A stretch of 32,000 bases of DNA, from contig JAOASE010000010.1 of NCBI GenBank assembly GCA_025210155.1, positions 55,587 through 87,586 of the forward strand. The letters are read 5' to 3'. Position numbers and translations under genes: made by a program. The notes beneath the pieces were generated by a model. It had not been told where the DNA came from, made no database searches, and saw nothing but the letters and a program-made list of their open reading frames with translations. Of the stretch, positions 2,822-29,692 are shown piece by piece. Source of the stretch: Alphaproteobacteria bacterium. GTDB taxonomy: Bacteria > Pseudomonadota > Alphaproteobacteria > Rs-D84 > CASDRH01. How positions within the stretch are numbered: position 1 is the stretch's first letter; the number at the start of each line of letters is the position of its first letter.

Positions 2822-2949
2822 TTAAACAAGTATTTTGTGCGAGTGGAAGCAAAAGTGCTTGAGAATTTTGGTGTCGTGTATAGATAATACTCGACTGCCA
2901 AAAGTCAAAAGTACTTTTTACAATCAATCGTGCAAAAGACGCCGTTTAA
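2822..2949 (+). repeat. Long-hairpin dispersed repeat, copy A (A/B subfamily)
   Basis: Termini attaaac...gtttaat. Central stem ggtgtcgtgtat(2870-2881)/atactcgactgcc(2887-2899), loop agata. About 80% identical by eye to copy B. Right end abuts the envZ-like stop codon (2950). Confidence 0.9.
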
Positions 2950-4290
2950 TTAGATAGGTAAAACAATCTTAACTCTCAACCCCTTCAACGAATGACCATC
3001 TTTAAGATAAATATCTCCACCATGAGCCAATACAATCTCCTTAGCAATAGCAAGTCCAAGACCTACTCCACCAGTCTTTGTATTTCTAGAAGTTTCAATT
3101 CTAGCAAATGGTTTGAACATCTCATCTCTCTTATCTTCAGGAATACCACAACCATCATCTTCAATATTAACTACAATATTATCTCTTTCTTTTCTCATCT
3201 TAACTAAAACAGTAGTATCAGCGTATCTAACAGCATTCATGATAACATTATTAAGACATCTCTTCATAGCTTCCGGTTTAAGATCAACCTTTTTATCAAG
3301 ATGAGCAAACTTACAAACAAATTTCTTATCAAAAGAATTAAATCTATCAACTACATTACCAAGAAGATCTTCTACATCAACTTTCTTAGTAGTTTCACCA
3401 CCCTCTCCTTTAGCATATTCAAGGTATTCATCAATCATTCTCTTCATATCTTCAATTTCTTCATTAAGGTTTTCTTTTAAATCTAAATCTTTAGTCTTTT
3501 GAACTTCTAAAAGCATTCTAGTCAAAGGAGTTCTCAAATCATGAGATATAGCAAATAACATTTTCATTCTATTATTAAACACTCTTGTAATTCTGCTTTG
3601 CATTTGTAAGAAAGCATTTCCTGTTCTTCTGATTTGACTAGCACCACTAGGAACAAAACCAACAACCTCTTTACCTTTACCAAAATCTTCAGTAGCTTGC
3701 GCAAGATCTTCAATAGACCTAACCTGCCCTCTTATAAACGGATAAGCTATAAGAACAGCAAATATACCACCAAAAATTATCCAAAGGAAAACAACTGCCG
3801 TAGAACTAGTAAATAACTTCTTCAAAGAAGACTCAACAACAAGCAATCCACCATTAAAATTAACTTCTGTTCTCAAATGCTTCATTTCTTCATTAGCAAT
3901 AATATTATAATTACCATCACCAAATTCTTGTCTGAAAGCTTCTTCTGCATTAGGATAATTTCTAATCAAATATGGATAAAGATTTTCCTTCTTTACAAAT
4001 TCAGTATTTGGAAAATAACTAACATCCATATCTTCTATCTCTTTAAAATAAGACTTAATCCACTCTTGGTTTCTATCTTCAAAATCTATAAAGTATTCTG
4101 CAGATTTAATAGAATTAACATAATAATTAACCAATCGTTTAGAAACTGTATCCCAGTGTCTATCATAGAATACATAACCAACAATAGTTTGTAACATAAT
4201 CATAGGAATAATCAAAGAAAGCATCGTTCTTCCCATCAATCCTTTAGGTAAAAATCTCTTAAACATATGTCCTATAAAATTCATCTTCAT
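2950..4290 (-). CDS. envZ: Two-component sensor histidine kinase, EnvZ-like
   Basis: H-box FAISHDLRTPLTRM; ATPase motifs NAVRYA, DDGCGIP, GGVGLGLAIAKEIV; two TM segments. Start set at ATG 4290 (MKMNF) behind RBS aaaggtga; the TTG at 4320 is unlikely. Confidence 0.85.
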   Translation of the reverse strand: MKMNFIGHMFKRFLPKGLMGRTMLSLIIPMIMLQTIVGYVFYDRHWDTVSKRLVNYYVNSIKSAEYFIDFEDRNQEWIKSYFKEIEDMDVSYFPNTEFVKKENLYPYLIRNYPNAEEAFRQEFGDGNYNIIANEEMKHLRTEVNFNGGLLVVESSLKKLFTSSTAVVFLWIIFGGIFAVLIAYPFIRGQVRSIEDLAQATEDFGKGKEVVGFVPSGASQIRRTGNAFLQMQSRITRVFNNRMKMLFAISHDLRTPLTRMLLEVQKTKDLDLKENLNEEIEDMKRMIDEYLEYAKGEGGETTKKVDVEDLLGNVVDRFNSFDKKFVCKFAHLDKKVDLKPEAMKRCLNNVIMNAVRYADTTVLVKMRKERDNIVVNIEDDGCGIPEDKRDEMFKPFARIETSRNTKTGGVGLGLAIAKEIVLAHGGDIYLKDGHSLKGLRVKIVLPI

Positions 4291-4350
4291 ATCATCACCT
4301 TTTCTTATTTTTAAAATCAAATTTTCTTAACTGTCATCTAACATTATATT

Positions 4351-4480
4351 TTAAACAAGTATTTTTGTTCGAGTGGAAGCGAAAATGTTTTTCAGATTTG
4401 GTATCGTGTATAAATAATACTCGATCGCCAAAGATTAAAAATATTTCTCGCAATCAATCGTACAAAAGACGCCGTTTAAA
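4351..4480 (+). repeat. Long-hairpin dispersed repeat, copy B (A/B subfamily)
   Basis: Termini ttttaaac...gtttaaaa. Central stem ggtatcgtgtat(4400-4411)/atactcgatcgcc(4417-4429), loop aaata. Lies between the ompR stop (4482) and the envZ start (4290). Confidence 0.9.
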
Positions 4481-4481
4481 A

Positions 4482-5204
4482 TTAAAAAGATATAAATTTA
4501 TATCCCTTATTTCTAACCGTCAATATAAAGTTAGGCTTCTTAGGATTTATTTCTATCTTCTTTCTTAATCTAGTAATTTGAACATCAACTGCTCTCAAAC
4601 TCTCTGATAAATTCAGTGCCTCAGCTAATTGTTCCCTAGTTAAAACTTCATCTCTATGATTTATCAAAAACGATAACAAAACCCCTTCAGAGTAAGAAAG
4701 AGATATAGCCTTATCAGCCTTAACTAACGAATTTCTTGAAAAATCAAACTCAAATTCTTCACCAAAAATATATTTATCACTATCATTATAAGACTTAGTC
4801 TCTACTCTCTTATAAACCCTAGTTAAAATATTTTTAATTCTCAAAAGAAGTTCATCTGGAGAAAACGGCTTAGCTAAATAATCATCCGCCCCAGCTTCTA
4901 AACCTTTAATTTTACTTTCCACTTCATCCAAAGCAGATAACATCAATATTGGGAAATTATAATTTTTAGATCTAAGCTCTTTAACAAGATCAAAGCCATC
5001 CATACCAGGCATCATAGCATCTAAAATCATTATATCTATAGATATTTTAGAAACAACTCTAAGGGCCTCATCCGCATCTTTAACACAAGAAACAAGATAA
5101 TCGTCATTATCCTTAATAAAAGAAGTCAATAATCCTCTAAGCTTTTCATCATCATCAACCACTAAGACATGGTATCTTTTTCTAAATCTTCTATCATTTT
5201 CCAT
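4482..5204 (-). CDS. ompR: OmpR-family response regulator
   Basis: Receiver domain (HVLVVDDD, ILDAMMPGMDG, KPF) plus winged-helix C-terminus (VQITRLRKKIE, LTVRNKGYKF). Start at ATG 5204 behind RBS gagg. Confidence 0.9.
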   Translation of the reverse strand: MENDRRFRKRYHVLVVDDDEKLRGLLTSFIKDNDDYLVSCVKDADEALRVVSKISIDIMILDAMMPGMDGFDLVKELRSKNYNFPILMLSALDEVESKIKGLEAGADDYLAKPFSPDELLLRIKNILTRVYKRVETKSYNDSDKYIFGEEFEFDFSRNSLVKADKAISLSYSEGVLLSFLINHRDEVLTREQLAEALNLSESLRAVDVQITRLRKKIEINPKKPNFILTVRNKGYKFISF

Positions 5205-5293
5205 ATTCAACCTCACTTAAAACAATTATAATACAATACCGAAAATCAATTCAAGTAAAAAAGCTATTATAATATATCTTATATATATAGTAA

Positions 5294-5319
5294 TGCCGAC
5301 CAAGAAAACAAGGTCGGCA
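5294..5319 (-). terminator. GC-rich hairpin downstream of the 5346 gene, possible terminator
   Basis: Stem tgccgacc(5294-5301)/ggtcggca(5312-5319). No clean T-run on the minus strand. Confidence 0.35.
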
Positions 5320-5345
5320 CTTCAAATAATTAGACTTTTTTCCTA

Positions 5346-6449
5346 TTATTCTCTTCTAGCTCCAGGAGTTCCAGGTGTTAAATCTTCAGACGTAACTTCT
5401 CTAACTCTCTTAAAAGAACTTGAAGTTATAGTTCCACCTTTAATCTCTTTAGAGAAAGAAGACTCTTTATATAATTCTTTCTTTTCAGTAGAAATAGGAA
5501 TCACTTTATATCTTCCAGGAACAACATATTCACCACCATCTTTAGTAGTATCTGATTTTTCTTTTTCTACAACAACTTTATTACCTTCTGGGAATTTCAT
5601 TAAGAAATATCCTGTTTTACCAGCATTAGCACCACCTTCAAAGTTAAAAGTATAATATGCACCAATCAAGTTGTAATCTAAATCAATATAATCAATATTA
5701 TAAATAATGTTACCAATAACGTTTCTAGAAGAATTAAGATCACAATAATAATTACCACCAACAACAACAATAGAATTAGAACCTCTAACTTCTATTCTGT
5801 TATTATAAGCAGTACATTTTGTCTTAATACCATTAGCCAACAAGTTTGGTTGTAAAGCAAATTCTAAACTTTTGAATTGTTTGTCATGATCCAAACCATA
5901 AATAGTCGCAGACATTAAATCGAAAACAACTGGAGTACCTGCACCAACATCCGCAGCTACTTTAATACCAGAAGTTAAACAAGCTCTGTTATTAGGATCT
6001 GCTTCACAAATCGCAATATTAGAATGTTTATTATAATAAAACATTTTAAACAAATTAGAATACAAAAATTCTGAAGTAGTCTTACTATTCACTCTTGTAC
6101 AATTAAAATCTCTACAAACCACAGTTGGCTTTTTTGCGAATCTAAGATCTTCATTATAAATAGTCTTATTTTGCATTGCATGATTTAACTTTTGTTTAAG
6201 CACCTCATTTTCATATTCTTGTTGATGAAGTCTCATCTCCAAATCAGCATTCATTTCTTCCATACTATTAATTTCTCTTTCGTATTCACTTTCAACACCT
6301 AAGAAATCACTAACTTGAACATCTTCATCGGTAGATAAATTTTTCTCATCACCACCAAAGAAAAAGAATGAATTAGATGTATTTGGACATACAAAAAAAG
6401 AACCAAAAACAACAGCTAAAGCAAAATAACTATTTCGAAGCTTAACCAT
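5346..6449 (-). CDS. Hypothetical exported protein, 367 aa: signal peptide, coiled-coil segment, Cys-containing C-terminal domain
   Basis: N-terminus MVKLRNSYFALAVVFGSFFVC looks like a signal peptide. RBS aggagag precedes ATG 6449. No recognised family. Confidence 0.6.
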   Translation of the reverse strand: MVKLRNSYFALAVVFGSFFVCPNTSNSFFFFGGDEKNLSTDEDVQVSDFLGVESEYEREINSMEEMNADLEMRLHQQEYENEVLKQKLNHAMQNKTIYNEDLRFAKKPTVVCRDFNCTRVNSKTTSEFLYSNLFKMFYYNKHSNIAICEADPNNRACLTSGIKVAADVGAGTPVVFDLMSATIYGLDHDKQFKSLEFALQPNLLANGIKTKCTAYNNRIEVRGSNSIVVVGGNYYCDLNSSRNVIGNIIYNIDYIDLDYNLIGAYYTFNFEGGANAGKTGYFLMKFPEGNKVVVEKEKSDTTKDGGEYVVPGRYKVIPISTEKKELYKESSFSKEIKGGTITSSSFKRVREVTSEDLTPGTPGARRE

Positions 6450-6546
6450 AAAACTCTCCTAAATTTATTTTTTCATACTATAATGATACTAAATTTTAGA
6501 ACAAAAGACAATTAAAAACTTCATTTTATCAAACCCCTCTCCTGTC

Positions 6547-6567
6547 ATCCCGGACTTAATCCGAGAT
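6547..6567. other. Short GC-rich hairpin module in AT-rich spacer
   Basis: atcccgga-cttaa-tccgagat: 8-bp stem with one mismatch, preceded by tgtcat. Confidence 0.4.
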
Positions 6568-6834
6568 CAACAAGAAATTTAAAGCAAAACCACATATTAA
6601 TTCCCAATTTTTTCAAAGAATTAAAAATAAATTGCAACAGTAGATTAAAGTTCTTATTGCAATTCCAGAACAAATCAATAAAATAAACCTTAGAGAACAA
6701 AATTTCTCAAAAATTTTTACACACATTTTACAGAAATGAAAAACTTCATAAAGCAATCTTTCCACATAACGTTTTGGATAATTTGCTTTAAAGAAAAATG
6801 TTAAAAAAAACGAATTTTACTTCTGCACTTTTTC

Positions 6835-7019
6835 CAAGTATTTTGTGCGAATGAAAGTAAAAAGTATAATATAAAAATTTTAACTCTCGGAGTTTTGGTA
6901 ATTTTGCTTCAGATAGAAGTAAAAATGATTTTTAGATAAAGTATCGCGTATAAATAATACTCGATCGCTTTAGATAAAAATTATTTCTTACGATTAGATA
7001 AGTAAAATCCCCAAAACCC
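6835..7019 (+). repeat. Long-hairpin dispersed repeat, copy C (duplicated left arm)
   Basis: Central stem aagtatcgcgtat(6939-6951)/atactcgatcgctt(6957-6970), loop aaata. Two tandem left-arm modules (6835-6890, 6900-6938). Right tail aaaatccccaaaaccc ends 23 nt before ATG 7043. Confidence 0.85.
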
Positions 7020-7042
7020 TTAATTAAAAAGAGGAATAAAAA

Positions 7043-7672
7043 ATGGATATTACTATTAACGGCGAAGAAGGTCTTCTTCAAGCTGGATATCATAAAAACG
7101 AAGAAAAAAATAAGAAAATAGCTGTAATACTTTCAGACCACCCAAAAAGAGGTAGTCACATGAACGACAAAGCCATCTACACGCTATATCACACTTACAC
7201 ACTACAAGGTTTCAACGTTATTAGATTTAACTACAGAGGCGTTGGTCTTTCTAAAGGTGAATTCTCAGGTAACGAAGGAGAAATCACAGATGCTGCAAAC
7301 ATCCTAGACTGGATGGAAAAAACAAATGACAAATACGAAGAAGTTCACGTAGTAGGAATCGGCTTCGGTTCATGGTTAGCATTACACCTTTTAATGAGAA
7401 GACCTGAAATTACAAATTTCGCCCTAATCTCTCCAATCGTAGAAGGATATGAATTCAACTTTGTAAACCCTTGTGCTGCTAATGGTATTATCGTAAAAAC
7501 AGAATGCCAAAAAGAATCGCAAAAAGAAAAGATTAAAAAACTTTATAAAGATTTAGAAAAAATGAATTCTGGTGAAACAAAACTTATAAGAATGAATACA
7601 TGTTGTTGCAAATTCGAAAGTAAATTAAAACCACTATTCGATAACATGCAAGAATTCATAACAAAGAAGTAA
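7043..7672 (+). CDS. Alpha/beta-fold hydrolase-like protein (resembles the COG2945 type), catalytic residues apparently absent
   Basis: RBS aagagga. Family-like blocks HPKRGSHMN, VIRFNYRGVGLSKGEFS, DAANILDWM. The nucleophile elbow reads GIGFG rather than G-x-S-x-G. Confidence 0.6.
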   Translation: MDITINGEEGLLQAGYHKNEEKNKKIAVILSDHPKRGSHMNDKAIYTLYHTYTLQGFNVIRFNYRGVGLSKGEFSGNEGEITDAANILDWMEKTNDKYEEVHVVGIGFGSWLALHLLMRRPEITNFALISPIVEGYEFNFVNPCAANGIIVKTECQKESQKEKIKKLYKDLEKMNSGETKLIRMNTCCCKFESKLKPLFDNMQEFITKK

Positions 7673-7687
7673 AAAAAATATTTCATT

Positions 7688-7714
7688 GTCATTGCGAGCA
7701 GAGCGTGGCAATCC
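7688..7714. other. Short GC-rich module (gtcattgcgagcagagcgtggcaatcc)
   Basis: GC-rich island in an AT-rich spacer. attgc/gcaat can pair. Begins tgtcat, like the 6547 module. Confidence 0.35.
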
Positions 7715-7726
7715 AGAAAAAATAAA

Positions 7727-7750
7727 AGCACCACTACGGTGCTTTTTTTA
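7727..7750 (+). terminator. Rho-independent terminator of the hydrolase-like gene
   Basis: Stem agcacc(7727-7732)/ggtgct(7738-7743), then a T-run to 7749. Confidence 0.75.
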
Positions 7751-7795
7751 CAAAACTTCAGTAACTAAAACATCATAACAACTGAATCTTTACAT

Positions 7796-7836
7796 TAAAA
7801 AAGAGTCGTAAGTACCTACCCCGACTCTATTTTTTA
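7796..7836. terminator. Bidirectional terminator
   Basis: Stem agagtcg(7802-7808)/cgactct(7822-7828), A-run before and T-run after. Serves the minus-strand gene ending at 7842. Confidence 0.6.
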
Positions 7837-7841
7837 AAATT

Positions 7842-8363: not shown

Positions 8364-8440
8364 GTTTTTTGTCTAAAAAAGAAAAAATCCCAGAAAAATT
8401 TTATTTCCTGAGACTTTAAATCTTGAAGATTTGGTTACTT

Positions 8441-8536
8441 TTGACTTAGATGTTTCTGAAAATGATTTCGAAGTTTACAAATAGTAAATAAGATAATCAT
8501 TTATCAGGAACAGATATTCAAAATTCCCAAATCCCC
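8441..8536 (+). repeat. Long-hairpin dispersed repeat, copy G (shortened centre)
   Basis: Left arm ttgacttagatgtttctgaaaatgattt and right arm aatcatttatcaggaacagatattcaaaattcccaaatcc are homologous to the copy C arms. The centre is reduced to gtttac-aaata-gtaaat. Ends 7 nt before the tpiA stop. Confidence 0.6.
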
Positions 8537-8543
8537 TTATCTT

Positions 8544-9284
8544 CTAAGAAGCACTAGCAATAGCTAGAAATGAATCCGCCTTAAGTGACGCACCACCTAC
8601 TAGCACACCGCCAACAGAATCAATTGCTAAAATTTCTTCAGCAGTTTCTGGTTTAACAGATCCACCATAAAGAATAGCTACACCAGCATACCCCATATCT
8701 TCAGCAACCTTTGCAATAGAATCATGCATTTCTTTAACGTCCGCTGGAGTTGCAGATTTACCAGTACCAATAGCCCAAACTGGTTCATAAGCGATAACTA
8801 CAGTATCACCATTACCTGCTTTAGGTAAAGATGCTTTAACTTGTGCAGCAACTACATCTAAAGCTTTACCAGCTTCTCTATCTTCTAAAACTTCACCAAC
8901 ACAAACAATAGGAGTTAAGCCTTGTTTTAAAGCAGTATCAGCTTTTTCAGCAACTAAGGCATCAGTTTCTTTTTCATATTGTCTTCTTTCACTGTGTCCA
9001 AGAATAACAAACTCAGCACCTAACTCTTCTAACATTTCAGCTGAAACATTACCAGTATAAGCTCCAGAATCTTTAGTATGACAATCTTGTCCACCTACTT
9101 TAATTGAAGAATCTTTAGTCAATTCGCAAGCAACAGCCGTCATAGTAAATGGAGGGCAAACAACCATTTGGAATTTAGTTTCATCTAAAGATTTAACACC
9201 TTTAACCAATGCGTCTAAAAGAGCTACATCTTCCTTCAAACCGTTCATTTTCCAATTACCGGCAATCAATTTTTTATTATTCAT
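8544..9284 (-). CDS. tpiA: Triosephosphate isomerase
   Basis: 246 aa. Motifs GNWKMNG, ILGHSERR, AYEPVWAIGTG, YGGSVKP. Confidence 0.95.
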   Translation of the reverse strand: MNNKKLIAGNWKMNGLKEDVALLDALVKGVKSLDETKFQMVVCPPFTMTAVACELTKDSSIKVGGQDCHTKDSGAYTGNVSAEMLEELGAEFVILGHSERRQYEKETDALVAEKADTALKQGLTPIVCVGEVLEDREAGKALDVVAAQVKASLPKAGNGDTVVIAYEPVWAIGTGKSATPADVKEMHDSIAKVAEDMGYAGVAILYGGSVKPETAEEILAIDSVGGVLVGGASLKADSFLAIASAS

Positions 9285-10852: not shown

Positions 10853-10889
10853 CAAAAAAATAAAGCCCCTCTTCCGAAGGGCTTTTTTT
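10853..10889. terminator. Rho-independent terminator, copy 1 of a duplicated 36-37 bp block
   Basis: caaaaaaataaagcccctcttccgaagggcttttttt. Stem aaagccc/gggcttt with A-run and T-run flanks, so bidirectional. Confidence 0.8.
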
Positions 10890-10907: not shown

Positions 10908-11477
10908 TCAATCATATACCCACATAAGGTGTTGGTGTTCAATTTCCCTAACGATCTTTTCAATAGTATTTTTTTCTTTAGCTATTGTTTCTGTCTCTCT
11001 TTTAGTGACCAATTCACTAAATTCCTTAACACATAACGTAACAAAACGCAATTTTGCCGCAGGATCAAGACCAAGATCAGAAATTAAATCATCTTGAAAC
11101 TTAATCTCTCTACCTGATTTAACAAATTTCTCTTCCTTCAAAATATCAATAACTCTTTTACAGCGATAATAAGTCCGCAAATAATCTGAAATATGATAAA
11201 TTTTAGAAAAATCCTTACACTCCTCTTCTGGAATTTTCAAGCAAAATTTTTCTTCACAAAGACTTATCAATTTCTTTTTATCAAAATCGGCTTCAAATTT
11301 AAATTGAGCCCAAAAAAAACGACTTGTTATTCCTGAAGCATTTTCAACCAAAGAATTCTCTTTTATAATTTTAATTATTTCTTTATAAAATTGATAATTA
11401 CAATCAATCTCTGGTTTTTCAGCTATTTTTTGATCTTTATCACTAGAATTATTTCCAGTAAAAAATTTTATTTTCAT
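10908..11477 (-). CDS. Hypothetical protein with two tandem ACP-like domains, both lacking the phosphopantetheine-attachment serine
   Basis: 189 aa. LISLCEEKFCLKIPEEE and DLGLDPAAKLRFVTLCVKEF align with LDSLDILYFIQLCEDKFKITIPDEV of the neighbouring ACPs. The Ser position reads P in domain 2, and domain 1 has no Ser in the aligned stretch. Confidence 0.55.
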   Translation of the reverse strand: MKIKFFTGNNSSDKDQKIAEKPEIDCNYQFYKEIIKIIKENSLVENASGITSRFFWAQFKFEADFDKKKLISLCEEKFCLKIPEEECKDFSKIYHISDYLRTYYRCKRVIDILKEEKFVKSGREIKFQDDLISDLGLDPAAKLRFVTLCVKEFSELVTKRETETIAKEKNTIEKIVREIEHQHLMWVYD

Positions 11478-11562: not shown

Positions 11563-11598
11563 CAAAAAATAAAGCCCCTCTTCCGAAGGGCTTTTTTT
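11563..11598. terminator. Rho-independent terminator, copy 2 of the duplicated block
   Basis: caaaaaataaagcccctcttccgaagggcttttttt, identical to 10853-10889 except for one A in the A-run. Terminates the ACP operon on the minus strand. Confidence 0.8.
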
Positions 11599-11618: not shown

Positions 11619-11873
11619 TTAAGCGACAACTCCATTTCTTATATCATAGATAATATTAACAAAGTCCTCTACTGTTTTAGCCTCTTCCGCAACTTCATCT
11701 GGAATAGTAATTTTAAATTTATCTTCACAGAGTTGAATAAAGTAAAGTATATCCAAACTATCTAAAGGAAGATCTTTCGTTAAATTAGCTTCCAAAACAA
11801 CTTCGTCCTCATTGATTCCATATTTATCAACGATACCAGCCTTTAAAACATTAAAAATTTCTTCTTTTGTCAT
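11619..11873 (-). CDS. Acyl carrier protein-like, orphan paralog 2
   Basis: 84 aa from ATG 11873. Carrier motif LPLDSLDILYFIQLCEDKF with the serine intact. Roughly half identical to the upstream ACP. Confidence 0.7.
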   Translation of the reverse strand: MTKEEIFNVLKAGIVDKYGINEDEVVLEANLTKDLPLDSLDILYFIQLCEDKFKITIPDEVAEEAKTVEDFVNIIYDIRNGVVA

Positions 11874-11890
11874 AATCAAAAATTTTAGGT

Positions 11891-12133
11891 TTAATTAATT
11901 ATATTATAAACTATATTTACAAAATCCTGAACTATTTCAGCTTTTTCAGCAACATCATCTGAAATATGAATATCAAACCTTTTCTCACAAAATTGAATAA
12001 ATTCAAGATGATCTAAACTATCTAAAGCCAAATCATCTACCCAGTTAGATTTTAATTCAACCTCATTTTCATGAATTCCTGCCTTATCTGCTATCTCAGA
12101 TTTTAGAACATTAAAAATTTCTTCTTTTTTCAT
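11891..12133 (-). CDS. Acyl carrier protein-like, orphan paralog 1
   Basis: 80 aa. Carrier motif LALDSLDHLEFIQFCEKRF. No fab genes adjacent. Confidence 0.7.
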   Translation of the reverse strand: MKKEEIFNVLKSEIADKAGIHENEVELKSNWVDDLALDSLDHLEFIQFCEKRFDIHISDDVAEKAEIVQDFVNIVYNIIN

Positions 12134-12742: not shown

Positions 12743-14677
12743 TTATTTTCTGAATACAGCTGGTATATCCAAGCTTTCTTCCATTTCTTCAATAACATCC
12801 ATCAAATTAAAAGGTTTTTTCTCTTCACCCTTCTCTTTCATAGAACTAGAAATGAAAACAACATTATCAGATTTTAATTGTTTATCATCTGAACTTGCTG
12901 TAGCACTTGCAGCTGGTGCTGGTTTTCTAACAACTGTTTCTTTTTTAACAGTTCTAACAACAGGTGCTTCTTCCACTACAACTTCTTCTTCAATATCAAC
13001 TTCTTCAAAAGGAACTTCATCCACTTCTTCTTCAATTAATTCAGCTTCATCTTCCTTTTTACCTTTTTTAAAGATTGAAGTAAAAAATTTAGACTTACCA
13101 ATTTTCTTATCTTCATCTTCAACATCTTCAGTTGTTTCTACAACAACTTCATCAACTCTATCTACTTCGCCATCTTCTTCAATTTCTACGAAAACATCTT
13201 CTTCAACAACTGATGGAGACTCTTGCAATTTAGTTTCAATCTCCTCTGTTATTTCTTCAGCAATATCTTCTGCAGTTTCTTGATTTTCAGCAATAGTATT
13301 AAACTCTTGCTCTAATTGAACATCTTCTTCATTTTGCCCAATCTCAACACCATCAATTTTATCTCTAAGTCTTGAAAATTCACCAATTGGTGATTTTGGA
13401 GCTTCTTGAGCTGCCTCCCTAACAACAACTCTTTCAGAAATTTCCTTAGGAACCACTAAGTCATCACTAGCTTTAACAGTTTCTTCTTCAAATAAAGTTT
13501 CTTTAACAGGAGCTTGCGCAGCTTGAACTCTCTTCTCTTCTGATAATTTTTGTAAAGCAATATCAGATTTAGCAGCGTCACTCAAAGAAATACCATCAAC
13601 AAAAGCACCTTCATCAACTACCTTTTCTAACGTTTCAACTTCTGCACTAGAGAAAGTTCCTGAAAAATTAGCAACTCCATCAAAACCAGCCGCAACTAAT
13701 GAAACCTTAATCTTTCCAGCTAAATCATCATCAAAAGATGTACCAAAAATAATATTTGAATCTCTTAAACCAACGTCTTCTCTAATTCTATTCATGGCAG
13801 TACTAATTTCTTCCAATGACAAATCATCTTCCGAACCAGAAATATTCACAAGAACACCCTTTGCACCTGAAATAGTATTTGACGAAAGCAATCTATTAAC
13901 CAAAGCTTCTTCCGCTGCAACAATAGCTCTGTTTTCACCTTCAGCAATAGCAGTACCTATAACAGCCCTACCCTTACCCATCATAACAGATCTAATGTCA
14001 GCAAAATCAAGATTAATCAAACCTTGCTTAATCATTAAGTCAGTAATATTTTTAACACCTTCTACAAGAATGCCATCAGCAACTTGAAAAGCCTCTTTCA
14101 TTAACGTATCAGAACCAACCACTTCAAAAAGATTTTGATTTGGTAGCACAACTAATGAATCTACAATTTCTTCTAATTCTTTAACGGCAGTTTCTGCAAT
14201 TTGCCTTCTACCATCACCTTCAAAATCAAATGGTGTAGTAACAATAGCTACTGTCAAAATACCTTTATCTTTAGCTGCCTGAGCAATAACTGGAGTAGCA
14301 CCTGTACCAGAACCGCCACCTAATCCTGTCGCAATAAATAGCATATTAACATCTTTTAATTCTTCAATAATTTCATCCAAAGATTCTTCTGCAGCAACCT
14401 TACCTATTTCTGGTCTAGAACCAGACCCCAAACCTTTTGTAGTCTGCTTACCTAACTGTATAATTTTATCTGCACGAGAATTAACTAACGACTGCAAATC
14501 AGAGTTAGCAGAAACAAATCTAACTCCTTCAATCCCTTTTTCTATCATGTTATTAACGGCATTACAGCCTCCTCCACCAACACCAAAAACAGTGATATTA
14601 GGCAAGACAGTTTTCATTCCGCTTGGAGCTTGATTAGCAACATTATCATGAAGATTTGTAATATTTGATTTATTCAT
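12743..14677 (-). CDS. ftsZ: Cell division protein FtsZ with a ~300-aa acidic C-terminal linker
   Basis: GVGGGGCNAV, GLGGGSGTGATPV, C-terminal peptide LDIPAVFRK. RBS aaggagag. The linker is rich in E, D and V. Confidence 0.95.
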   Translation of the reverse strand: MNKSNITNLHDNVANQAPSGMKTVLPNITVFGVGGGGCNAVNNMIEKGIEGVRFVSANSDLQSLVNSRADKIIQLGKQTTKGLGSGSRPEIGKVAAEESLDEIIEELKDVNMLFIATGLGGGSGTGATPVIAQAAKDKGILTVAIVTTPFDFEGDGRRQIAETAVKELEEIVDSLVVLPNQNLFEVVGSDTLMKEAFQVADGILVEGVKNITDLMIKQGLINLDFADIRSVMMGKGRAVIGTAIAEGENRAIVAAEEALVNRLLSSNTISGAKGVLVNISGSEDDLSLEEISTAMNRIREDVGLRDSNIIFGTSFDDDLAGKIKVSLVAAGFDGVANFSGTFSSAEVETLEKVVDEGAFVDGISLSDAAKSDIALQKLSEEKRVQAAQAPVKETLFEEETVKASDDLVVPKEISERVVVREAAQEAPKSPIGEFSRLRDKIDGVEIGQNEEDVQLEQEFNTIAENQETAEDIAEEITEEIETKLQESPSVVEEDVFVEIEEDGEVDRVDEVVVETTEDVEDEDKKIGKSKFFTSIFKKGKKEDEAELIEEEVDEVPFEEVDIEEEVVVEEAPVVRTVKKETVVRKPAPAASATASSDDKQLKSDNVVFISSSMKEKGEEKKPFNLMDVIEEMEESLDIPAVFRK

Positions 14678-19260: not shown

Positions 19261-19286
19261 TCATATTTTGATTTAAATCAAAATAA

Positions 19287-19445
19287 TTAAACAAGTATTT
19301 TAATCGAGTGGATAAAAAAATGATTTAAATTTTTTATAGTTTGCTTTAGATGGAAGTAAAAGTGCTTAGAAATTTGGGTGTCGTGTATATATAATACTCG
19401 ACTGCCCAAAGTTTTAAGTGCTTCTTACAATCAGATGAAGTAAAA
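19287..19445 (+). repeat. Long-hairpin dispersed repeat, copy D (duplicated left arm)
   Basis: Central stem gggtgtcgtgtat(19376-19388)/atactcgactgccc(19394-19407), loop atata. Left end ttaaacaagtatttt as in A and B. Right arm cttcttacaatcagatgaagtaaaa ends 9 nt before the addA stop. Confidence 0.9.
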
Positions 19446-19454
19446 TATACAAAT

Positions 19455-23881: not shown

Positions 23882-23884
23882 CAT

Positions 23885-24345: not shown

Positions 24346-24410
24346 TTTAAAAATTTTAATCAGGTTTAAATCAATTACTTATAGTTTAAATTTGCTTATT
24401 TAGCCCTAGC

Positions 24411-24438
24411 AATATAACAAGTAATTTTTATTTTTCAA
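24411..24438 (-). promoter_or_regulatory. Sigma70-like promoter for the 23947 gene
   Basis: Minus strand: TTGAAA (24438-24433), 16-nt spacer, TATATT (24416-24411). Confidence 0.5.
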
Positions 24439-24460
24439 GAGGTAAAATGCATTTTTTCTA

Positions 24461-24497
24461 AAAAAAATAAAAAAGGAGGCAAATTTCTCTGCCTCCC
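24461..24497 (-). terminator. Rho-independent terminator of the 24517 gene
   Basis: Minus strand: ggaggca-gagaaatt-tgcctcc followed by a long T-run. Confidence 0.85.
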
Positions 24498-24516
24498 TCA
24501 ATAGTATGGATCTAAT

Positions 24517-24948
24517 CTAAACAGCCTTTGCTGCTTTTTTCCTTTTAGCTTTCTTCGGTTTCTTTTGTGCATTAATAAATCTCACATAATCACCCAAAGT
24601 ATTTAACTCAGCTTCCGGAGCATCTTGAGGAACCCCGAGTTCTTCCCTGAACTTTTCAATCAGCAAAGAAGAGTTTTTCATCTCCGATAACTTAGTCTCA
24701 AAGAAAGAATAAAAATACATCCCTGATAACTGCTTAAAAAATGCAAACATAGCATCTCCCCGATCTTTCACGTTTTGATAAATACTAGCAACATGATCAT
24801 GAAGGTTTTCATTATCCTTCTTATTTTCCCTTTTTAGATTAACCTTAATTAATAAAGGTAAATTTTCAACAGCAACAACTTGTTCGTTATTATTTAAAAA
24901 TGCCTTTAAGACATTCTGAACTGTTTCACTCTTTAAAATATCATACAT
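24517..24948 (-). CDS. Hypothetical helical protein, 143 aa, with a Lys-rich C-terminal tail (KKPKKAKRKKAAKAV)
   Basis: Start moved to ATG 24948 (MYDILKSE) because the longer ORF overlaps its own predicted promoter. Confidence 0.5.
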   Translation of the reverse strand: MYDILKSETVQNVLKAFLNNNEQVVAVENLPLLIKVNLKRENKKDNENLHDHVASIYQNVKDRGDAMFAFFKQLSGMYFYSFFETKLSEMKNSSLLIEKFREELGVPQDAPEAELNTLGDYVRFINAQKKPKKAKRKKAAKAV

Positions 24949-24987
24949 ATGTATTCTGTTATTAGGTTTAAAAACATTATCAATACA

Positions 24988-25015
24988 AAGATAACCAAAC
25001 AAATAATTTTATCAA
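24988..25015 (-). promoter_or_regulatory. Candidate promoter for the 24517 gene
   Basis: Minus strand: TTGATA (25015-25010), 16-nt spacer, TATCTT (24993-24988). Confidence 0.4.
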
Positions 25016-25055
25016 GAAAAAAAGAAATCTAATTAATATCCAATAGAAAAACATC

Positions 25056-25083
25056 TTGATTTCCAAAACAATTTGTTTATATT
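25056..25083 (+). promoter_or_regulatory. Sigma70-like promoter of parE
   Basis: TTGATT 25056-25061, 16-nt spacer, TATATT 25078-25083. Implies a leader of roughly 185 nt containing repeat copy F. Confidence 0.45.
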
Positions 25084-25140
25084 AAAAGTTAGAAAAAGGA
25101 AAAATCATACATAAAACATCTTAAAAACATCAACTATTTA

Positions 25141-25253
25141 TAGTGAGTAAAAGTGTTTTGTTATAAATTGTTTAGATGCGAAGGAAAAAGGTTCCGACGC
25201 GTATAAACAAATACGTGAGGGTTCTTTTTTCAAAGCAGATGAATGATTTAGGA
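25141..25253 (+). repeat. Long-hairpin dispersed repeat, divergent copy F, in the parE leader
   Basis: Family blocks gtgagtaaaagtgtttt, tttagatgcgaagg and caaagcagatgaatgattt. Central stem cgcgtat(25198-25204)/atacgtg(25211-25217), plus an outer stem gaaaaaggttcc/gggttctttttt. Confidence 0.45.
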
Positions 25254-25273
25254 CGAAACGGAGAATTATAAAC

Positions 25274-27235
25274 ATGAGCAATCTAACAGGGAATAAAGAC
25301 TACTCAGCCAAAGACATAAAAGTTCTAGAAGGACTAGAGCCTGTTCGTTTAAGACCAGGTATGTATATTGGTGGAAGTGACGAAAAAGCTATGCACCATT
25401 TAATAGCTGAAATCCTTGATAACTCAGTAGACGAAGCTGTTGCCGGATATGCCACAGACATTAAAATTGATCTACTTCCTGGAAACAAAATCATAATAAG
25501 AGATAACGGTAGAGGTATCCCATGCGACCCTCACCCTAAATACCCTGGAAAATCTGCACTTGAAGTAATCTTAACGTCACTTCACTCAGGTGGTAAATTC
25601 GAAGGCGGAGCATATAAAACATCTGGTGGTCTACACGGTGTAGGTATCTCAGTAGTTAACGCCCTTTCATCTCAAATGGAAGTTAAAGTTTACAAAAACG
25701 GAACTATTTTCGAACAAAAATTCTCAAGAGGACTTTGTCTAGGTCCAGTAGAAGAAATCGGTGAAACAAGATCTAAAGGAACAGAAGTTATGTTTGTTCC
25801 AGACACTGAAATCTTCGGCGAAAAAACAAGATTTAGAACACAAAAAATATTCAAATATGTAAGATCAAAAGCATTCTTATTCAAAGGTCTAAAAATCACT
25901 TTAAACATAGACCCTACTTTGATTACAGACGACATGGGAATAGAACCAACAACTACATTCCACTTCCCAGAAGGTATCAAAGAATTCTTACAAGACTCAG
26001 TTAAAAATAAAACTATAGTAAGCAACATGATCTTCGCAGGTGAAGCTCCTCTAGCCAACGACAAAGGTAAAGTAGAGTGGGCATCTCTATGGATAGAACC
26101 AGAAACTTATGAAAAAAGCGGTTTCACACTTTCATACTGTAATACAGTTCCAACTGTAGAAGGTGGTACTCACGAAGCTGGTTACAGATCTGCTGTACTA
26201 AAATCATTAAAACAATTCGGTGAAATGATCAACAACAAAAAAGCTGCTCAAATCACTGCTGACGACATCTTCGGAGAAGCTGGAGTAATTATATCTATAT
26301 TCTATAAAAACCCAGAATTCCAAGGTCAAACAAAAGAAAAATTCTCAAGTTCAGACGCGAACAAACTTACTGAAAACGCAGTAAGAGACTATTTCGACCA
26401 CTTCCTAATCGAAAACAAAGATCAAGCAATCACGTTACTTGACTTCATAGTAGAAAGAAGTGAAGAAAGACTTAAATCTCGTAAAGCAAAAGAAACTACT
26501 AGAAAATCTGCAACTAAAAAAATCAGATTACCAGGTAAACTAACTGACTGCTCAAAGAAAAACTCAGAAGATACAGAACTATTCCTAGTAGAGGGAGACT
26601 CTGCGGGAGGTTCAGCAAAACAAGGTAGAGATAGAGAAACTCAAGCAATCTTACCTCTTAAAGGTAAAATCCTAAACGTTGCTTCAGCATCTACTGACAA
26701 AATATTTGCTAACAAAGAAATTCAAGACATGGTAGAAGCTCTAGGTTGCGGAATGGGTAAAGACTATGACGAAAGCAAACTTAGATACGAAAGATTAGTA
26801 ATCATGACCGATGCCGACGTTGACGGTTCTCACATCGCAACATTACTAATGACTTTCTTCTATAAAGAAATGCCACAACTAATAGAAAACGGACACCTAT
26901 TCCTAGCATGCCCTCCTCTATTCAAGGTACATAACAAATCAAAATCTTTCTACTGCTTCACAGAAGAAGAAAAAGATCAAGTTATAGAAAAAGAATTCAA
27001 AGGCGTAAAACCAATGGTAAACCGTTTCAAAGGATTAGGTGAAATGAACCCTTCTCAATTGAAAGAAACTACTATGGATAAGAAAACTAGAATTCTTCTA
27101 AGAGTAGGATTACCTGACTTCGTTGAAGAGATAGAAGAAACAAAAACTCTAGTTGAACACTTAATGGGTAAAGAAGCAAAACACCGTTTCAAATTCATTC
27201 AAGAAAACGCCAGCTTCGTAGAAGTAGATGTATAA
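25274..27235 (+). CDS. parE: DNA topoisomerase IV subunit B
   Basis: 653 aa type IIA B subunit: LEGLEPVRLRPGMYIGG, GLHGVG, Toprim EGDSAGG and IMTDADVDGSHI. Its length and the lack of the long GyrB insertion favour ParE over GyrB. Confidence 0.85.
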   Translation: MSNLTGNKDYSAKDIKVLEGLEPVRLRPGMYIGGSDEKAMHHLIAEILDNSVDEAVAGYATDIKIDLLPGNKIIIRDNGRGIPCDPHPKYPGKSALEVILTSLHSGGKFEGGAYKTSGGLHGVGISVVNALSSQMEVKVYKNGTIFEQKFSRGLCLGPVEEIGETRSKGTEVMFVPDTEIFGEKTRFRTQKIFKYVRSKAFLFKGLKITLNIDPTLITDDMGIEPTTTFHFPEGIKEFLQDSVKNKTIVSNMIFAGEAPLANDKGKVEWASLWIEPETYEKSGFTLSYCNTVPTVEGGTHEAGYRSAVLKSLKQFGEMINNKKAAQITADDIFGEAGVIISIFYKNPEFQGQTKEKFSSSDANKLTENAVRDYFDHFLIENKDQAITLLDFIVERSEERLKSRKAKETTRKSATKKIRLPGKLTDCSKKNSEDTELFLVEGDSAGGSAKQGRDRETQAILPLKGKILNVASASTDKIFANKEIQDMVEALGCGMGKDYDESKLRYERLVIMTDADVDGSHIATLLMTFFYKEMPQLIENGHLFLACPPLFKVHNKSKSFYCFTEEEKDQVIEKEFKGVKPMVNRFKGLGEMNPSQLKETTMDKKTRILLRVGLPDFVEEIEETKTLVEHLMGKEAKHRFKFIQENASFVEVDV

Positions 27236-27242
27236 CAATTTC

Positions 27243-27270
27243 AAAGCTCCCTAACCGGAGCTTTTTTTTC
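27243..27270 (+). terminator. Rho-independent terminator of parE
   Basis: agctcc/ggagct stem followed by an 8-nt T-run. Confidence 0.8.
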
Positions 27271-27271
27271 A

Positions 27272-27301
27272 TTGACAATCACAATAGATCATTGCTAGTA
27301 T
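27272..27301 (+). promoter_or_regulatory. Sigma70-like promoter, copy 1 of a duplicated block
   Basis: TTGACA 27272-27277, 18-nt spacer, TAGTAT 27296-27301. The block 27262-27309 recurs at 27804-27852 with three substitutions. Confidence 0.6.
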
Positions 27302-27351
27302 TTTTTCATATAAATAATTTACTGTTACTAACCATTTTTAAACAAATTATT

Positions 27352-27783
27352 ATGAGTAATGACAAAGCAAATAAAAAGGCTGAAGCCGAAAGAATTACTA
27401 AAATAATCACTGAAAAAATTAAACTTTCAATTTCCGATGTAACCATATCAAAAAATATCGAAAGAAACTTAGCAGAACATAATAATTTTACTTTTAGTTC
27501 TGAAGATAAACGTGCTAGCAAAATTTTAATTGCAATATGCGGAGAAGAATTCGAAAAATTTTATTACCGAAATACAAATCAAGGTAATATACATACAGAA
27601 TACTTTGAAGTAAGTGCAAAAGAAATTCTGGAAAAATTTCCTCTAGTAGAGTATATTCTTAATGAAATAGAGGAAGGAAAATACGAGTTATTCAAAATTT
27701 CCAAACTAGAGGAAAGAAAAAAAGAACTCAAGAAAAAGCAAGAAATCAACAATTTCGTAGATGCTTTAGTAGAAAAAATTTAA
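27352..27783 (+). CDS. Small hypothetical protein, tandem family member 1 (143 aa)
   Basis: Start moved to ATG 27352 (MSNDKANKK) because ORF 27292 begins inside the promoter. The C-terminal half ILEKFPLVEYILNEIEEGKYELFKISKLEERKKE aligns with member 2. Confidence 0.6.
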   Translation: MSNDKANKKAEAERITKIITEKIKLSISDVTISKNIERNLAEHNNFTFSSEDKRASKILIAICGEEFEKFYYRNTNQGNIHTEYFEVSAKEILEKFPLVEYILNEIEEGKYELFKISKLEERKKELKKKQEINNFVDALVEKI

Positions 27784-27784
27784 A

Positions 27785-27812
27785 AAGAGGTGTCTAACAC
27801 TTCTTTTTTTTT
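27785..27812 (+). terminator. Rho-independent terminator
   Basis: aagaggtg/cacttctt stem (one G:U pair) followed by a 9-nt T-run. Confidence 0.7.
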
Positions 27813-27814
27813 CA

Positions 27815-27844
27815 TTGACAACCACAATCAATCATTGCTAGTAT
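27815..27844 (+). promoter_or_regulatory. Sigma70-like promoter, copy 2 of the duplicated block
   Basis: TTGACA 27815-27820, 18-nt spacer, TAGTAT 27839-27844. Confidence 0.6.
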
Positions 27845-27883
27845 TTTTTCATCAAAACGTTAAACCTAAAAATCCATTATATT

Positions 27884-28285
27884 ATGAACCTCCGAAAAGC
27901 AAATTGCTGCAAAAAAGCAGAAATAATCTTAAAAAGGCTTGCAGAATTTAATTATTTCAATATAGAAATAATATGTTCAGAAAAAGAGTTCGGTAAAAAG
28001 AGCTCCACAAAAAACATAGCTATAGCTATCAATGTTGATGGAAAAGCACAAAGAATCAAAATAATTGAAAAGCCAGAACAAAAAATCAAAACAAAAGAGA
28101 AACCTAGCATTAATTATCAAAGCATCTTAGATCAAGCTCCTCTAGCTGTTTTCCTTCTAGAAATAGAAAAAGGTAAAAATCAGGTGGTGGTATATAAGGT
28201 ATCAAACTTTGAAGAAAGAGAAGATCACTACAAGAAAGAAAAATGTAATGATAAAAACTTTAAAAAATTAGTAGCATGGGTATAA
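27884..28285 (+). CDS. Small hypothetical protein, tandem family member 2 (133 aa)
   Basis: ILDQAPLAVFLLEIEKGKNQVVVYKVSNFEEREDHYKKEK aligns with member 1. The N-terminal KAN..KKAE is also shared. Confidence 0.6.
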   Translation: MNLRKANCCKKAEIILKRLAEFNYFNIEIICSEKEFGKKSSTKNIAIAINVDGKAQRIKIIEKPEQKIKTKEKPSINYQSILDQAPLAVFLLEIEKGKNQVVVYKVSNFEEREDHYKKEKCNDKNFKKLVAWV

Positions 28286-28290
28286 ATTAA

Positions 28291-28328
28291 AGAAAGGAAA
28301 GTCTAAAATGATTTTCCTTTTTTTATTT
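28291..28328 (+). terminator. Weak AT-rich terminator hairpin
   Basis: aaaggaaa(28293-28300)/tttccttt(28313-28320) followed by a T-run. Confidence 0.45.
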
Positions 28329-28342
28329 CACATTTTTTATTC

Positions 28343-28371
28343 TTGACAAAGTATATTTTAACGAATAATAT
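28343..28371 (+). promoter_or_regulatory. Sigma70-like promoter
   Basis: TTGACA 28343-28348, 17-nt spacer, TAATAT 28366-28371. Confidence 0.55.
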
Positions 28372-28395
28372 ATTTACATACTAAAAATTAAAATC

Positions 28396-28755
28396 ATGAA
28401 AAATAAAATTTCTGAAAAAATTTTGGAACTAATCCAAAAACAAAATGTAAAGAATTCCAATGTTACACTAGGAAAAACTATAAACAAAGGTTTTCAAGTT
28501 CAAATTAGAAAAGAAAGCAAGATATTTGCAGTAAAAACAAATCAAGAAATTATACCCATAATATGTCAGGACAATAGCCCTGAAACAAAAAACCTTGATT
28601 TAGAACTGATAAATCAGCAGGTTCCAAGGGCAAATTGCATAATAACAATTATCCCAGGAAGAAGCGCTGAAATACAAAAAATTGCAAACCTGAGCCCAAA
28701 AAATTTACCTGAAAATCAGGAGGAAGCCGTAAAAGAATTAGAAAAATGGCTATAA
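28396..28755 (+). CDS. Small hypothetical protein, probable distant tandem family member 3 (119 aa)
   Basis: Same layout as members 1 and 2: KIFAVKTNQEIIPIIC, LINQQVPRANCIITIIPGRSAEIQKIANL, and the ending LEKWL (compare LVAWV and LVEKI). Confidence 0.5.
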   Translation: MKNKISEKILELIQKQNVKNSNVTLGKTINKGFQVQIRKESKIFAVKTNQEIIPIICQDNSPETKNLDLELINQQVPRANCIITIIPGRSAEIQKIANLSPKNLPENQEEAVKELEKWL

Positions 28756-28763
28756 CAAAACAC

Positions 28764-28800
28764 AATCCCGACACCACCTATAATTGTCGGGATTTTTTTA
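28764..28800 (+). terminator. Rho-independent terminator
   Basis: atcccgaca/tgtcgggat stem followed by ttttttt. Confidence 0.8.
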
Positions 28801-28829
28801 TTGACTCCCCTTCTTCAAATGGTAATATT
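28801..28829 (+). promoter_or_regulatory. Sigma70-like promoter
   Basis: TTGACT 28801-28806, 16-17 nt spacer, TAATAT or AATATT 28823-28829. Confidence 0.5.
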
Positions 28830-28856
28830 TTCCCAAACTAAAAATTTAAATCAAAT

Positions 28857-29321
28857 ATGTACACAGAAAACAACATTACTGAAGAAGTAACAAAAAAACT
28901 CCTTCCAGATGAGTTAGAAAAAGTCCTAAATTTTCTCAATGAAAAAGGATATAGAGCTGAATTTATCACTCCATTCATTGAAGAATTATTTAGAGACGAA
29001 AATGTATGGACCTTAAGAATCCAAAATATCCATATATTAAAAAGAGAAAGCTTTAAAATTTCTGACCTAAAAGATTTAGACGGAATAAAACCAGAGTTAT
29101 GCTCTGAAAAAAATTTCAGAGATGAAGGAACTGGAATATTCAACATTTTACCTTTAACTAAAAAAGATGAAGTATTAGAATTAGTCCCAAGTTTTAAAAA
29201 AGAATTCTATAAAACTAAAAATCTAATAGGACTGCACTTCCCTGCAGAAGTGAAATATTTTAGAACAGAAAATTTCTTCATTTTCGATCGTCAATTACCT
29301 AAAAAAATGATTGACAATTAG
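28857..29321 (+). CDS. Hypothetical protein, 154 aa
   Basis: ORF with its own promoter. No similarity noticed to the three upstream small proteins. Confidence 0.5.
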   Translation: MYTENNITEEVTKKLLPDELEKVLNFLNEKGYRAEFITPFIEELFRDENVWTLRIQNIHILKRESFKISDLKDLDGIKPELCSEKNFRDEGTGIFNILPLTKKDEVLELVPSFKKEFYKTKNLIGLHFPAEVKYFRTENFFIFDRQLPKKMIDN

Positions 29322-29386
29322 GAATAAAAATATATTATTCTCAATAGTAAATTTTTATTTATAAAGGTCTCAAAAAACAAAAAAAT

Positions 29387-29411
29387 GGTATTCAACGGAA
29401 TGCCTTTTTTT
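29387..29411. terminator. Bidirectional terminator
   Basis: ggtattc/gaatgcc stem (one G:U pair), A-run before and T-run after. Confidence 0.65.
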
Positions 29412-29581
29412 ATACCCAAACACTTGAATCAACAATTCAAAAACGAATCACAAACAATTGAAAAGACTCCTTCTTTTTTAAAAGAAATAATTCTCCTAAT
29501 AATACCATAAAAAAATCATTCAACAAAAATACTATTTTAATATTTTTGTTTTTTAACCCTATATTTAATCCCAATGTTTTT

Positions 29582-29692
29582 CATAGTTTGCATTAGATGG
29601 AAGTAAAAAAGCATTTTAGATAAGTTATTGTGTATATACAATACTCAATCGACTTAGATAAAATGCTTTTCTTACAATCAGATGATGTGAAA
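29582..29692 (+). repeat. Long-hairpin dispersed repeat, copy E (single left arm)
   Basis: Central stem aagttattgtgtat(29622-29635)/atactcaatcgactt(29641-29655), loop ataca. Outer stem aaaagcatttta/taaaatgctttt is a perfect 12 bp. Ends 12 nt before the lptB stop. Confidence 0.9.

Follow-up and report, generated by a model that had tools for sequence, protein, structure and literature searches.

A 32,000-nt stretch of an uncultured alphaproteobacterial genome (contig JAOASE010000010.1 of assembly GCA_025210155.1, positions 55,587 to 87,586; hereafter the window) carries a dispersed, non-coding family of palindromic repeats, each of which folds as a single imperfect hairpin. Ten copies were found in ~55 kb of this one genome, seven of them in the window and three (H, I, and J) on ~23 kb of neighbouring sequence of the same organism reached by exact-protein look-ups; with flanks, the copies measure 105–134 nt. 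Compensatory changes between copies preserve the pairing, and the mismatches point to one strand as the strand that folds. [quoted passage not shown]

The first five copies (A–E) came from repeat finding and sequence reading, and a covariance model built on them scores the full-length A–E at 104–114 bits. With its filters off, the model also recovered two shorter divergent copies, at 8440–8525 and 25167–25250. Eight copies (A, B, C, D, E, H, I, and J) are treated as full copies, and F and G as short variants.

Hairpin architecture

Each element forms one imperfect rod of ~40–53 pairs (~50 bp) with outermost stems that are paired in all copies, and has a nested modular build in which an outer stem encloses a central stem capped by an apical loop (GUAUAnAUAAUAC). 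The central stem contains conserved tandem G·A and A·A internal loops, a U·U mismatch, and a bulged pyrimidine, all of which persist across lineages, as do three fixed G:U pairs. A first-pass annotation of the window had remarked on the shared mismatch and bulge in five copies; the U·U mismatch (C·U in C) and the single bulged 3′-arm pyrimidine are present in all full copies. Folding of the + strand of A–E is stronger than that of dinucleotide shuffles (z −6.8 to −9.3). A, B, and H end in TTAA, which is palindromic in its own right and covaries to ATAAAC…ATTTAT in I. A local 5′ hairpin using the direct repeat AGAUGGAAGUAAAA was dropped as an alternative fold because the local partner does not covary with the changes in E, whereas the long-range one does.

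A coding reading of the repeat was also rejected: one frame is open through A and B and closed in the other copies, and most frames of most copies contain stops. A conserved unpaired UGGAAG in the 5′ arm resembles a Shine–Dalgarno sequence (B, 4374–4417; A, 2844–2887; D, 19351–19394), and in six of the eight full copies an ATG or GTG five bases past it opens a 10-codon mini open reading frame (ORF) ending at the UAA of the apical loop, with peptides such as MFFRFGIVYK, MLENFGVVYR, and MLRNLGVVYI. The mini-ORF of C, J, and E is without a start or stops after four codons; it is probably incidental.

Compensatory change between copies

The first-pass annotation had argued for selection on the hairpin from double substitutions at four pairs of the central stem, counted outward from the loop, and the alignments reproduce all four: pair 7 is C:G and becomes U:A in E only; A and D have G:C at pair 9, where B, C, and E have A:U; pair 11, otherwise G:C, is U:A in E; and pair 12, otherwise G:C, is A:U in C. 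The reported 3-bp segment of the outer stem likewise reads gcg/cgc in B, gta/tac in C, D, and E, and ctg/cag in F, with a C·A mismatch in A.

Among eight sequences, 93.4% of cells are canonically paired, as compared with 78.2±1.5% after shuffling and 41–48% with a slid partner, and 25 of 41 pairs have changed on both sides (11.7±2.0 shuffled, 0/500; 4–7 slid). A tree-aware null, in which the 3′ columns were individually re-evolved along a neighbour-joining tree, each with as many changes as parsimony assigned to it, gives a similar picture for the eight full copies. Pair-preserving double changes occur at 18 of 36 pairs against an expected 5.3±1.6 (maximum 11; 0/1000), and 96% of cells are canonically paired against 81%. 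Compensatory change thus maintains pairing above the phylogenetic null while the irregularities are conserved, as had been proposed.

The same proposal would have failed had the double substitutions been an artefact of two source lineages. However, at least 10 different groupings of the copies carry double changes (four on E by itself, four on D by itself, three on {J, C}, two each on {B, H, I} and {A, D}, and others), and wobble intermediates occur at several pairs, for example C:G/U:G and G:C/G:U/A:U; this artefact is therefore excluded. Terminal branches with double changes include those leading to E and D (4 each), H, and A. Single stem differences between closely related modules are mostly transitions, ten of which keep the pairing by + strand wobble, while about six give A·C. 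The neutral spectrum at fourfold-degenerate sites, in contrast, consists of ~58% A↔T transversions and only ~19% transitions, so that the transition- and wobble-biased differences in the stems are evidence for continuing constraint.

Strand specificity and orientation

Counting G:U against A:C oppositions, as the first-pass annotation had suggested, identifies the + strand as the folding strand. In an arm-versus-arm alignment with equal mismatch scores, the + strand has 35 G:T and 4 A:C oppositions (~9:1), as well as 52 purine–purine and 21 pyrimidine–pyrimidine mismatches. Minimum free energies (MFE) for A–E run from −36.6 to −46.8 kcal/mol on the + strand and from −21 to −34.9 kcal/mol on the − strand. 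The window has a GC content of 31%, and its + strand is richer in C than in G and in A than in T along the entire length; mutation pressure is therefore expected to favour A:C, the opposite of the G:T excess seen. The G:T excess indicates selection on the + strand in single-stranded form, and we infer that both the pairing and its irregularities are kept by selection on this one strand.

All ten copies are oriented the same way, along the window + strand, within one replichore (two-sided p ~0.002), which suggests a replication-linked rule. The strand with the stabler hairpin is the C-rich strand, which is the leading-strand template. Transposition of IS608 and related ssDNA elements follows a lagging-strand-template rule, opposite to the folding strand of this repeat. 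Asymmetric palindromes may survive better with the stable hairpin off the lagging-strand template, and the observed orientation is compatible with this. A strand-specific wobble bias and a uniform orientation, both seen here, are not standard features of MITEs generally.

Module exchange and decay

The outer stems fall into two types, type 1 in {A, B, H, I, J} and type 2 in {C, D, E}, and the central modules into {A, D}, {B, I, H}, {J, C}, and {E}. J carries a centre 94–95% identical to that of C within a type-1 outer stem, and B and I are 98–100% identical in the central module and 83% identical in the outer one; copies exchange modules. Because the modules are contiguous and self-complementary, an exchange of the centre swaps both arms and adds apparent double substitutions. 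The first-pass view of the covariation as independent point events therefore has to be qualified, since some of it stems from exchange of entire self-complementary modules.

Its preference for selection over decay also holds in part. Though covariation exceeds the null, decay is under way in some copies, with several changes that break pairs in the outer stem of I and two truncated remnants of a type-1 5′ arm, both on the + strand. The first, at 6828–6863 just upstream of C (nhmmer E=0.023; repeat family D4), holds a promoter-like TTGTGC-16-TATAAT aimed at C and the hydrolase gene behind it. The second (TTAAACAAGTATTTTAATCGAGTGG…), at 19286–19330 directly upstream of D, belongs to families D4/D6 and gives a weak nhmmer match. 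A 7.5-kb public contig of the same organism ends inside copy A (contig positions 7463–7526, corresponding to window ~2820–2883), as expected if the repeat breaks short-read assemblies.

Genomic positions and transcription

All ten copies are intergenic, lying in 5′ untranslated regions (UTRs), in 3′ UTRs between stop codon and terminator, or in intercistronic spacers of unrelated core genes. Seven of them stand 0–10 nt past the stop codon of an opposite-strand gene. The other three (C, G, and J) immediately precede the ribosome-binding site in the 5′ UTR of a gene on their own strand.

Among the stop-abutting copies, A (2820–2951, +; 104.6 bits; MFE −46.3 on + and −34.9 on −) combines a type-1 outer stem (TTAAAC…GTTTAA) with an A/D-type central module; it abuts the stop codon of the histidine kinase (2950–2952, − strand) and has a bidirectional terminator (2743–2776) on its other side. 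Copy B (4348–4481, +; 110 bits; type-1 outer stem) lies between the response-regulator and histidine-kinase genes, both on the − strand, 2 nt from the response-regulator stop. The short variant F (8428–8534, +; 36.8 bits with filters off; MFE −28.4, z −5.1), labelled G in the first-pass annotation, retains the outer frame UUAGAUG…CAGAU with a different apex and sits between the stop codon of the triosephosphate isomerase gene (8544–8546, − strand) and that gene's terminator (8417–8384). Copy D (19335–19449, +; 113.9 bits; MFE −44.0 versus −21.0), with a type-2 outer stem and an A/D-type centre, has the stop codon of the AddA-like helicase gene (− strand) 5 nt away. Copy E (29576–29703, +; 105.6 bits; MFE −46.8 versus −26.6), a type-2 copy, is the most divergent full copy and has four private compensatory pairs; it stands 2 nt from the lptB stop (− strand), with a bidirectional terminator (29387–29411) on its other side. 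Beyond the right end of the window, copy I lies at the window equivalent of ~41.4 kb, 37 kb from copy B, and in both H and I the stop codon of the neighbouring gene overlaps the terminal TTAA/TTAT of the element.

Of the 5′-UTR copies, C (6893–7016, +; 103.9 bits; MFE −36.6 versus −25.9) has a type-2 outer stem and a J/C-type centre and precedes a + strand alpha/beta-hydrolase gene (ATG 7043). The short divergent variant G (25155–25259, +; 19.9 bits; MFE −36, z −6.95, on + versus −13.5 on −) precedes parE (ATG 25274), its 3′ arm ending at the ribosome-binding site; its strand asymmetry is the greatest of all copies, and it contains seven G:U pairs. Copy J lies in the 5′ UTR of rpmF-plsX-fabH.

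At A, F, I, and E, the neighbouring gene has its intrinsic terminator on the far side of the element, which is therefore transcribed with that gene as a 3′-UTR passenger, in its weaker version. No terminator follows the hairpin, and no consistent promoter precedes the copies. A good TTAGCA-17-TATAAT does lie upstream of copy A, and every full copy contains a sigma-70-like pair made of TTnAGA in the internal loop and, 16–18 nt on, nAnAAT in the apical loop (TATAAT in D), directed to the 3′ arm and the downstream gene (2859–2888, 4391–4418, 6931–6958, 19367–19395, and 29615–29642 in the window). Outward promoters are known in other MITEs. A dedicated + strand promoter was nonetheless rejected, as the density of promoter-like sites in this AT-rich DNA is that expected by chance and the flanks lack conservation; given that density, the sigma-70-like pair within the copies may be without meaning.

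Relatives and database searches

The closest relative, from sample SRR13663708 (~8 kb compared), has a Rho 93% and a ParE 95% identical to those of the window, with fourfold-degenerate sites ~30% diverged. At site A it has a 56-bp spacer with a terminator only. The spacers at B and G, about as long as their counterparts in the window, are unstructured (−15.8 and −9.7 kcal/mol) and match neither the covariance model nor the nhmmer profiles. The flanks of these orthologous sites are too diverged to delimit clean empty sites. At site B, global alignment of the relative's spacer between histidine kinase and response regulator with copy B gave 60% identity (z 4.4 by mononucleotide shuffles). This similarity, not significant by profile search, may represent a decayed remnant; because nhmmer profiles match nothing there, the identity is not relied on, and a decayed orthologue was set aside. 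That none of the three orthologous sites holds a recognisable copy speaks against the repeat being a host RNA that cannot be dispensed with. In a relative further removed (ParE 67%), 22 kb of sequence contain no copy.

The gene next to copy A is fast-evolving or replaced: the 203-aa ORF at 2128–2739 is 26% identical to a syntenic ORF of the same length in the close relative, as compared with 93–95% for its neighbours, and the ORF at 1183–2022 is absent from the relative's corresponding contig.

In Rfam searches, only a tRNA in the window reached a gathering score, and copies A–C returned nothing credible at E-values up to 10. A degenerate core pattern run against 185,579 reference genomes and JGI metagenomes returned only chance matches (3 and 16 loci), none with the hairpin, and two scans of viral collections gave no match. 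BLAST against plasmids, phages, and 5,426 Escherichia coli genomes revealed no relevant similarity. E. coli genomes carry ERIC and REP/BIME elements.

Comparison with known repeat systems

MITEs, which are treated together with RPEs, form stable transcript hairpins with RNase III and RNase E effects, and the ERIC/IRU and Correia elements similarly fold in mRNA and affect processing by these two enzymes (PMC10969869). RPEs can be numerous, with 526 in Rickettsia bellii (PMC1458961). Compared by description, the present family resembles RPEs and MITEs in consisting of ~100–150 bp AT-rich palindromic repeats scattered in a low-GC alphaproteobacterial genome, in several diverged subfamilies, with no transposase nearby and with stable transcript hairpins (PMC10969869). 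Unlike RPEs, which are noted for in-frame insertion in protein genes, the present copies are all intergenic with most frames closed; no clear target-site duplication and no cognate insertion sequence (IS) was found for them in the sequence covered. ERIC/IRU and Correia elements are likewise ~100–150 bp imperfect palindromes in transcribed intergenic regions (3′ UTRs and intercistronic spacers), but they belong to Enterobacteria and Neisseria, a different host lineage, and the family has no sequence similarity in the E. coli genomes searched.

The first-pass annotation had named attC and REP (repetitive extragenic palindromic) sites as possible identities, and neither assignment passed the tests applied: type-2 copies have no R″/R′ core, no integrase is encoded in the window, and the neighbours are core genes rather than cassettes. 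Like the present copies, integron attC sites combine highly variable sequence with a single-strand hairpin that is conserved, and they also have extrahelical base(s), a post-stop position, and a fixed orientation. However, the R″ (RYYYAAC) and R′ (GTTRRRY) cores are approximated, at six of seven positions, in type 1 only, are absent from C, D, and E, and are changed in I, and the copies stand among housekeeping genes on both strands with no co-oriented cassette array and no intI integrase. Identity with attC was rejected on core sites, gene context, and the lack of an integrase. REP/BIME elements with RAYT and the ends of IS200/IS605 are also strand-specific ssDNA hairpins with a replication-related orientation bias, but their stems of ~10–20 bp are served by a Y1 HUH enzyme; here the 105–134-nt element is one rod, the window holds no HUH gene, and the folding strand lies on the opposite template strand. 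The best placement is as a new family of the palindromic-repeat/MITE kind whose strand specificity is unusual and whose orientation is uniform.

Interpretation

The reading we consider probable, that of a MITE/RPE/ERIC-like repeat family with a selected + strand hairpin, accords with features typical of MITEs: the element is shorter than ~500 bp, non-coding, multi-copy, and dispersed, and its entire length is an imperfect inverted repeat. Under this reading, the hairpin would be the form recognised for copying or retention, as an ssDNA or RNA intermediate, by a protein presumably encoded elsewhere than nearby, and the host would tolerate copies only at non-disruptive positions. Copies would be co-transcribed and so probably have secondary effects on mRNA processing or stability. 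The uniform orientation may come from orientation-specific insertion or, alternatively, may reflect better survival when the stabler hairpin strand is on the leading-strand template.

Several observations weigh against this reading. No transposase, integrase, or HUH enzyme is present among the window genes by Pfam, and the called genes of the flanking loci include none by annotation. No clear target-site duplication is seen: the TTAA flanking A, B, and H is palindromic and covaries in I, and C, D, and E have no direct repeats around them. The evidence base is ~55 kb of one genome. Most copies are mutually 20–40% diverged, which gives little sign of a recent burst, and the private compensatory changes on terminal branches (four each in E and D) suggest long maintenance in place, which a purely selfish element does not obviously require. 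Finally, transcription probably yields the weaker (−) version of seven of the ten copies, so that expression with the neighbouring gene does not involve the selected strand.

The alternatives differ mainly in what they take the hairpin to be for. That the repeat is a host-functional family of structured cis-acting RNAs, its + strand hairpin active in RNA, appears unlikely. Under this explanation C, G, and J would be 5′-UTR stabilisers or translational gates, and the seven stop-abutting copies would be barriers or processing sites for antisense transcription into the 3′ ends of convergent genes. Its attraction lies in the one-strand, G:U-rich pairing with tandem G·A/A·A loops, conserved bulge, and conserved loop, in the terminal-branch covariation, and in the single differences, mostly wobble-preserving transitions and unlike the neutral spectrum, that separate near-identical central modules; the placement of C, G, and J directly upstream of ribosome-binding sites in the strongly folding orientation, and of seven copies 0–10 nt from a stop codon, also fits. 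It is opposed by the three orthologous sites without a recognisable copy in a relative with 93–95% protein identity, by promoters at no more than chance density upstream and no terminator after the hairpin, by the lack of an Rfam match, and by module swapping and truncated remnants, which are typical of repeat DNA. More doubtful still is a broader version, in which these are previously undescribed, host-kept, strand-specific structured elements read by a dedicated protein as RNA or ssDNA, with orientation tied to the replication arm and position to gene boundaries. If this were true, roles could include insulating convergent genes from antisense transcription or marking chromosome polarity.

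A strict ssDNA recombination or transposition site, whether an integron attC, REP/RAYT, or IS200/IS605-derived end cut by a tyrosine or HUH recombinase, would account for the strand-specific folding, the conserved extrahelical base and mismatches, and the single orientation of ten copies in one replichore, and the type-1 ends ATTAAAC/GTTTAAT match the attC R″/R′ consensus at six of seven positions. We nevertheless regard it as very doubtful, as such ends are absent in type-2 copies and covary away in I, the neighbours are core genes in both orientations with no cassette array, neither an integrase nor a Y1 transposase occurs in the window, the hairpin is a whole-element rod of ~50 bp rather than a stem that is short and subterminal or of REP size, and it is the leading-strand template that folds, opposite to the IS608 rule. 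Least probable of all is that structure is not selected and that the arms are kept complementary by template switching or by gene conversion between arms or copies. Template switching can generate and maintain hairpins and imitate compensatory substitution (PMC8794818), and exchange of whole modules between copies is evident. Copying from arm to arm would, however, erase asymmetries, and the bulge, the U·U mismatch, the G·A/A·A loops, and the three fixed G:U pairs persist in all lineages; such copying also predicts no excess of G:T over A:C, where 35 against 4 are seen, and wobble intermediates are found at several pairs.

Should the MITE/RPE/ERIC-like reading be right, this would be a palindromic-repeat family that is as yet uncharacterised, from an uncultured and little-known lineage of alphaproteobacteria, with unusually clean evidence (covariation, G:T excess, and swapped nested modules) for single-strand constraint on such repeats. 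It could help to explain how transposase-less palindromic (RPE-like) repeats persist in reduced genomes, and perhaps whether replication sets their orientation. In practice, covariation-based RNA screens would flag the family as a false "novel ncRNA" (non-coding RNA), and it breaks assemblies.

Gene content and other features of the window

The window encodes a core gene set, identified by Pfam (ParE and Rho also by protein comparison): Rho, a histidine kinase/response regulator pair, an alpha/beta hydrolase, triosephosphate isomerase (TIM), a SurA-like chaperone, two acyl carrier proteins, FtsZ, RuvB, an AddA-type helicase-nuclease, ParE, LptB, and LptA. Rho and ParE are 100% identical to the NCBI proteins MCT4552773 and MCT4552797 and 58–73% identical to those of the nearest named taxa.

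Two identical 35-nt terminator hairpins (AAAAAATAAAGCCCCTCTTCCGAAGGGCTTTTTTT) at 10855–10889 and 11564–11598, 709 bp apart, enclose an ORF of 189 aa (10908–11477, − strand) that has no Pfam match. The acyl-carrier-protein genes are tandem duplicates (11619–11879 and 11891–12133) with 250-nt units that are 72% identical. Short direct repeats (families D5, D8, and D9) occur at 12970–13520 in the 3′ half of the 644-aa ftsZ (− strand), which suggests a repetitive C-terminal linker. A 53-nt unit carrying TTGACA-18-TAGTAT is found at 27262–27314 and 27805–27857, its copies 91% identical, upstream of consecutive small ORFs without a Pfam match. Past the window, a run of tiny ORFs (36–107 aa; locus L031, 9400–12100) includes one named a pseudopilin by JGI; several have a perfect TTGACA-18-TATAAT promoter, and strong terminators stand between the ORFs.

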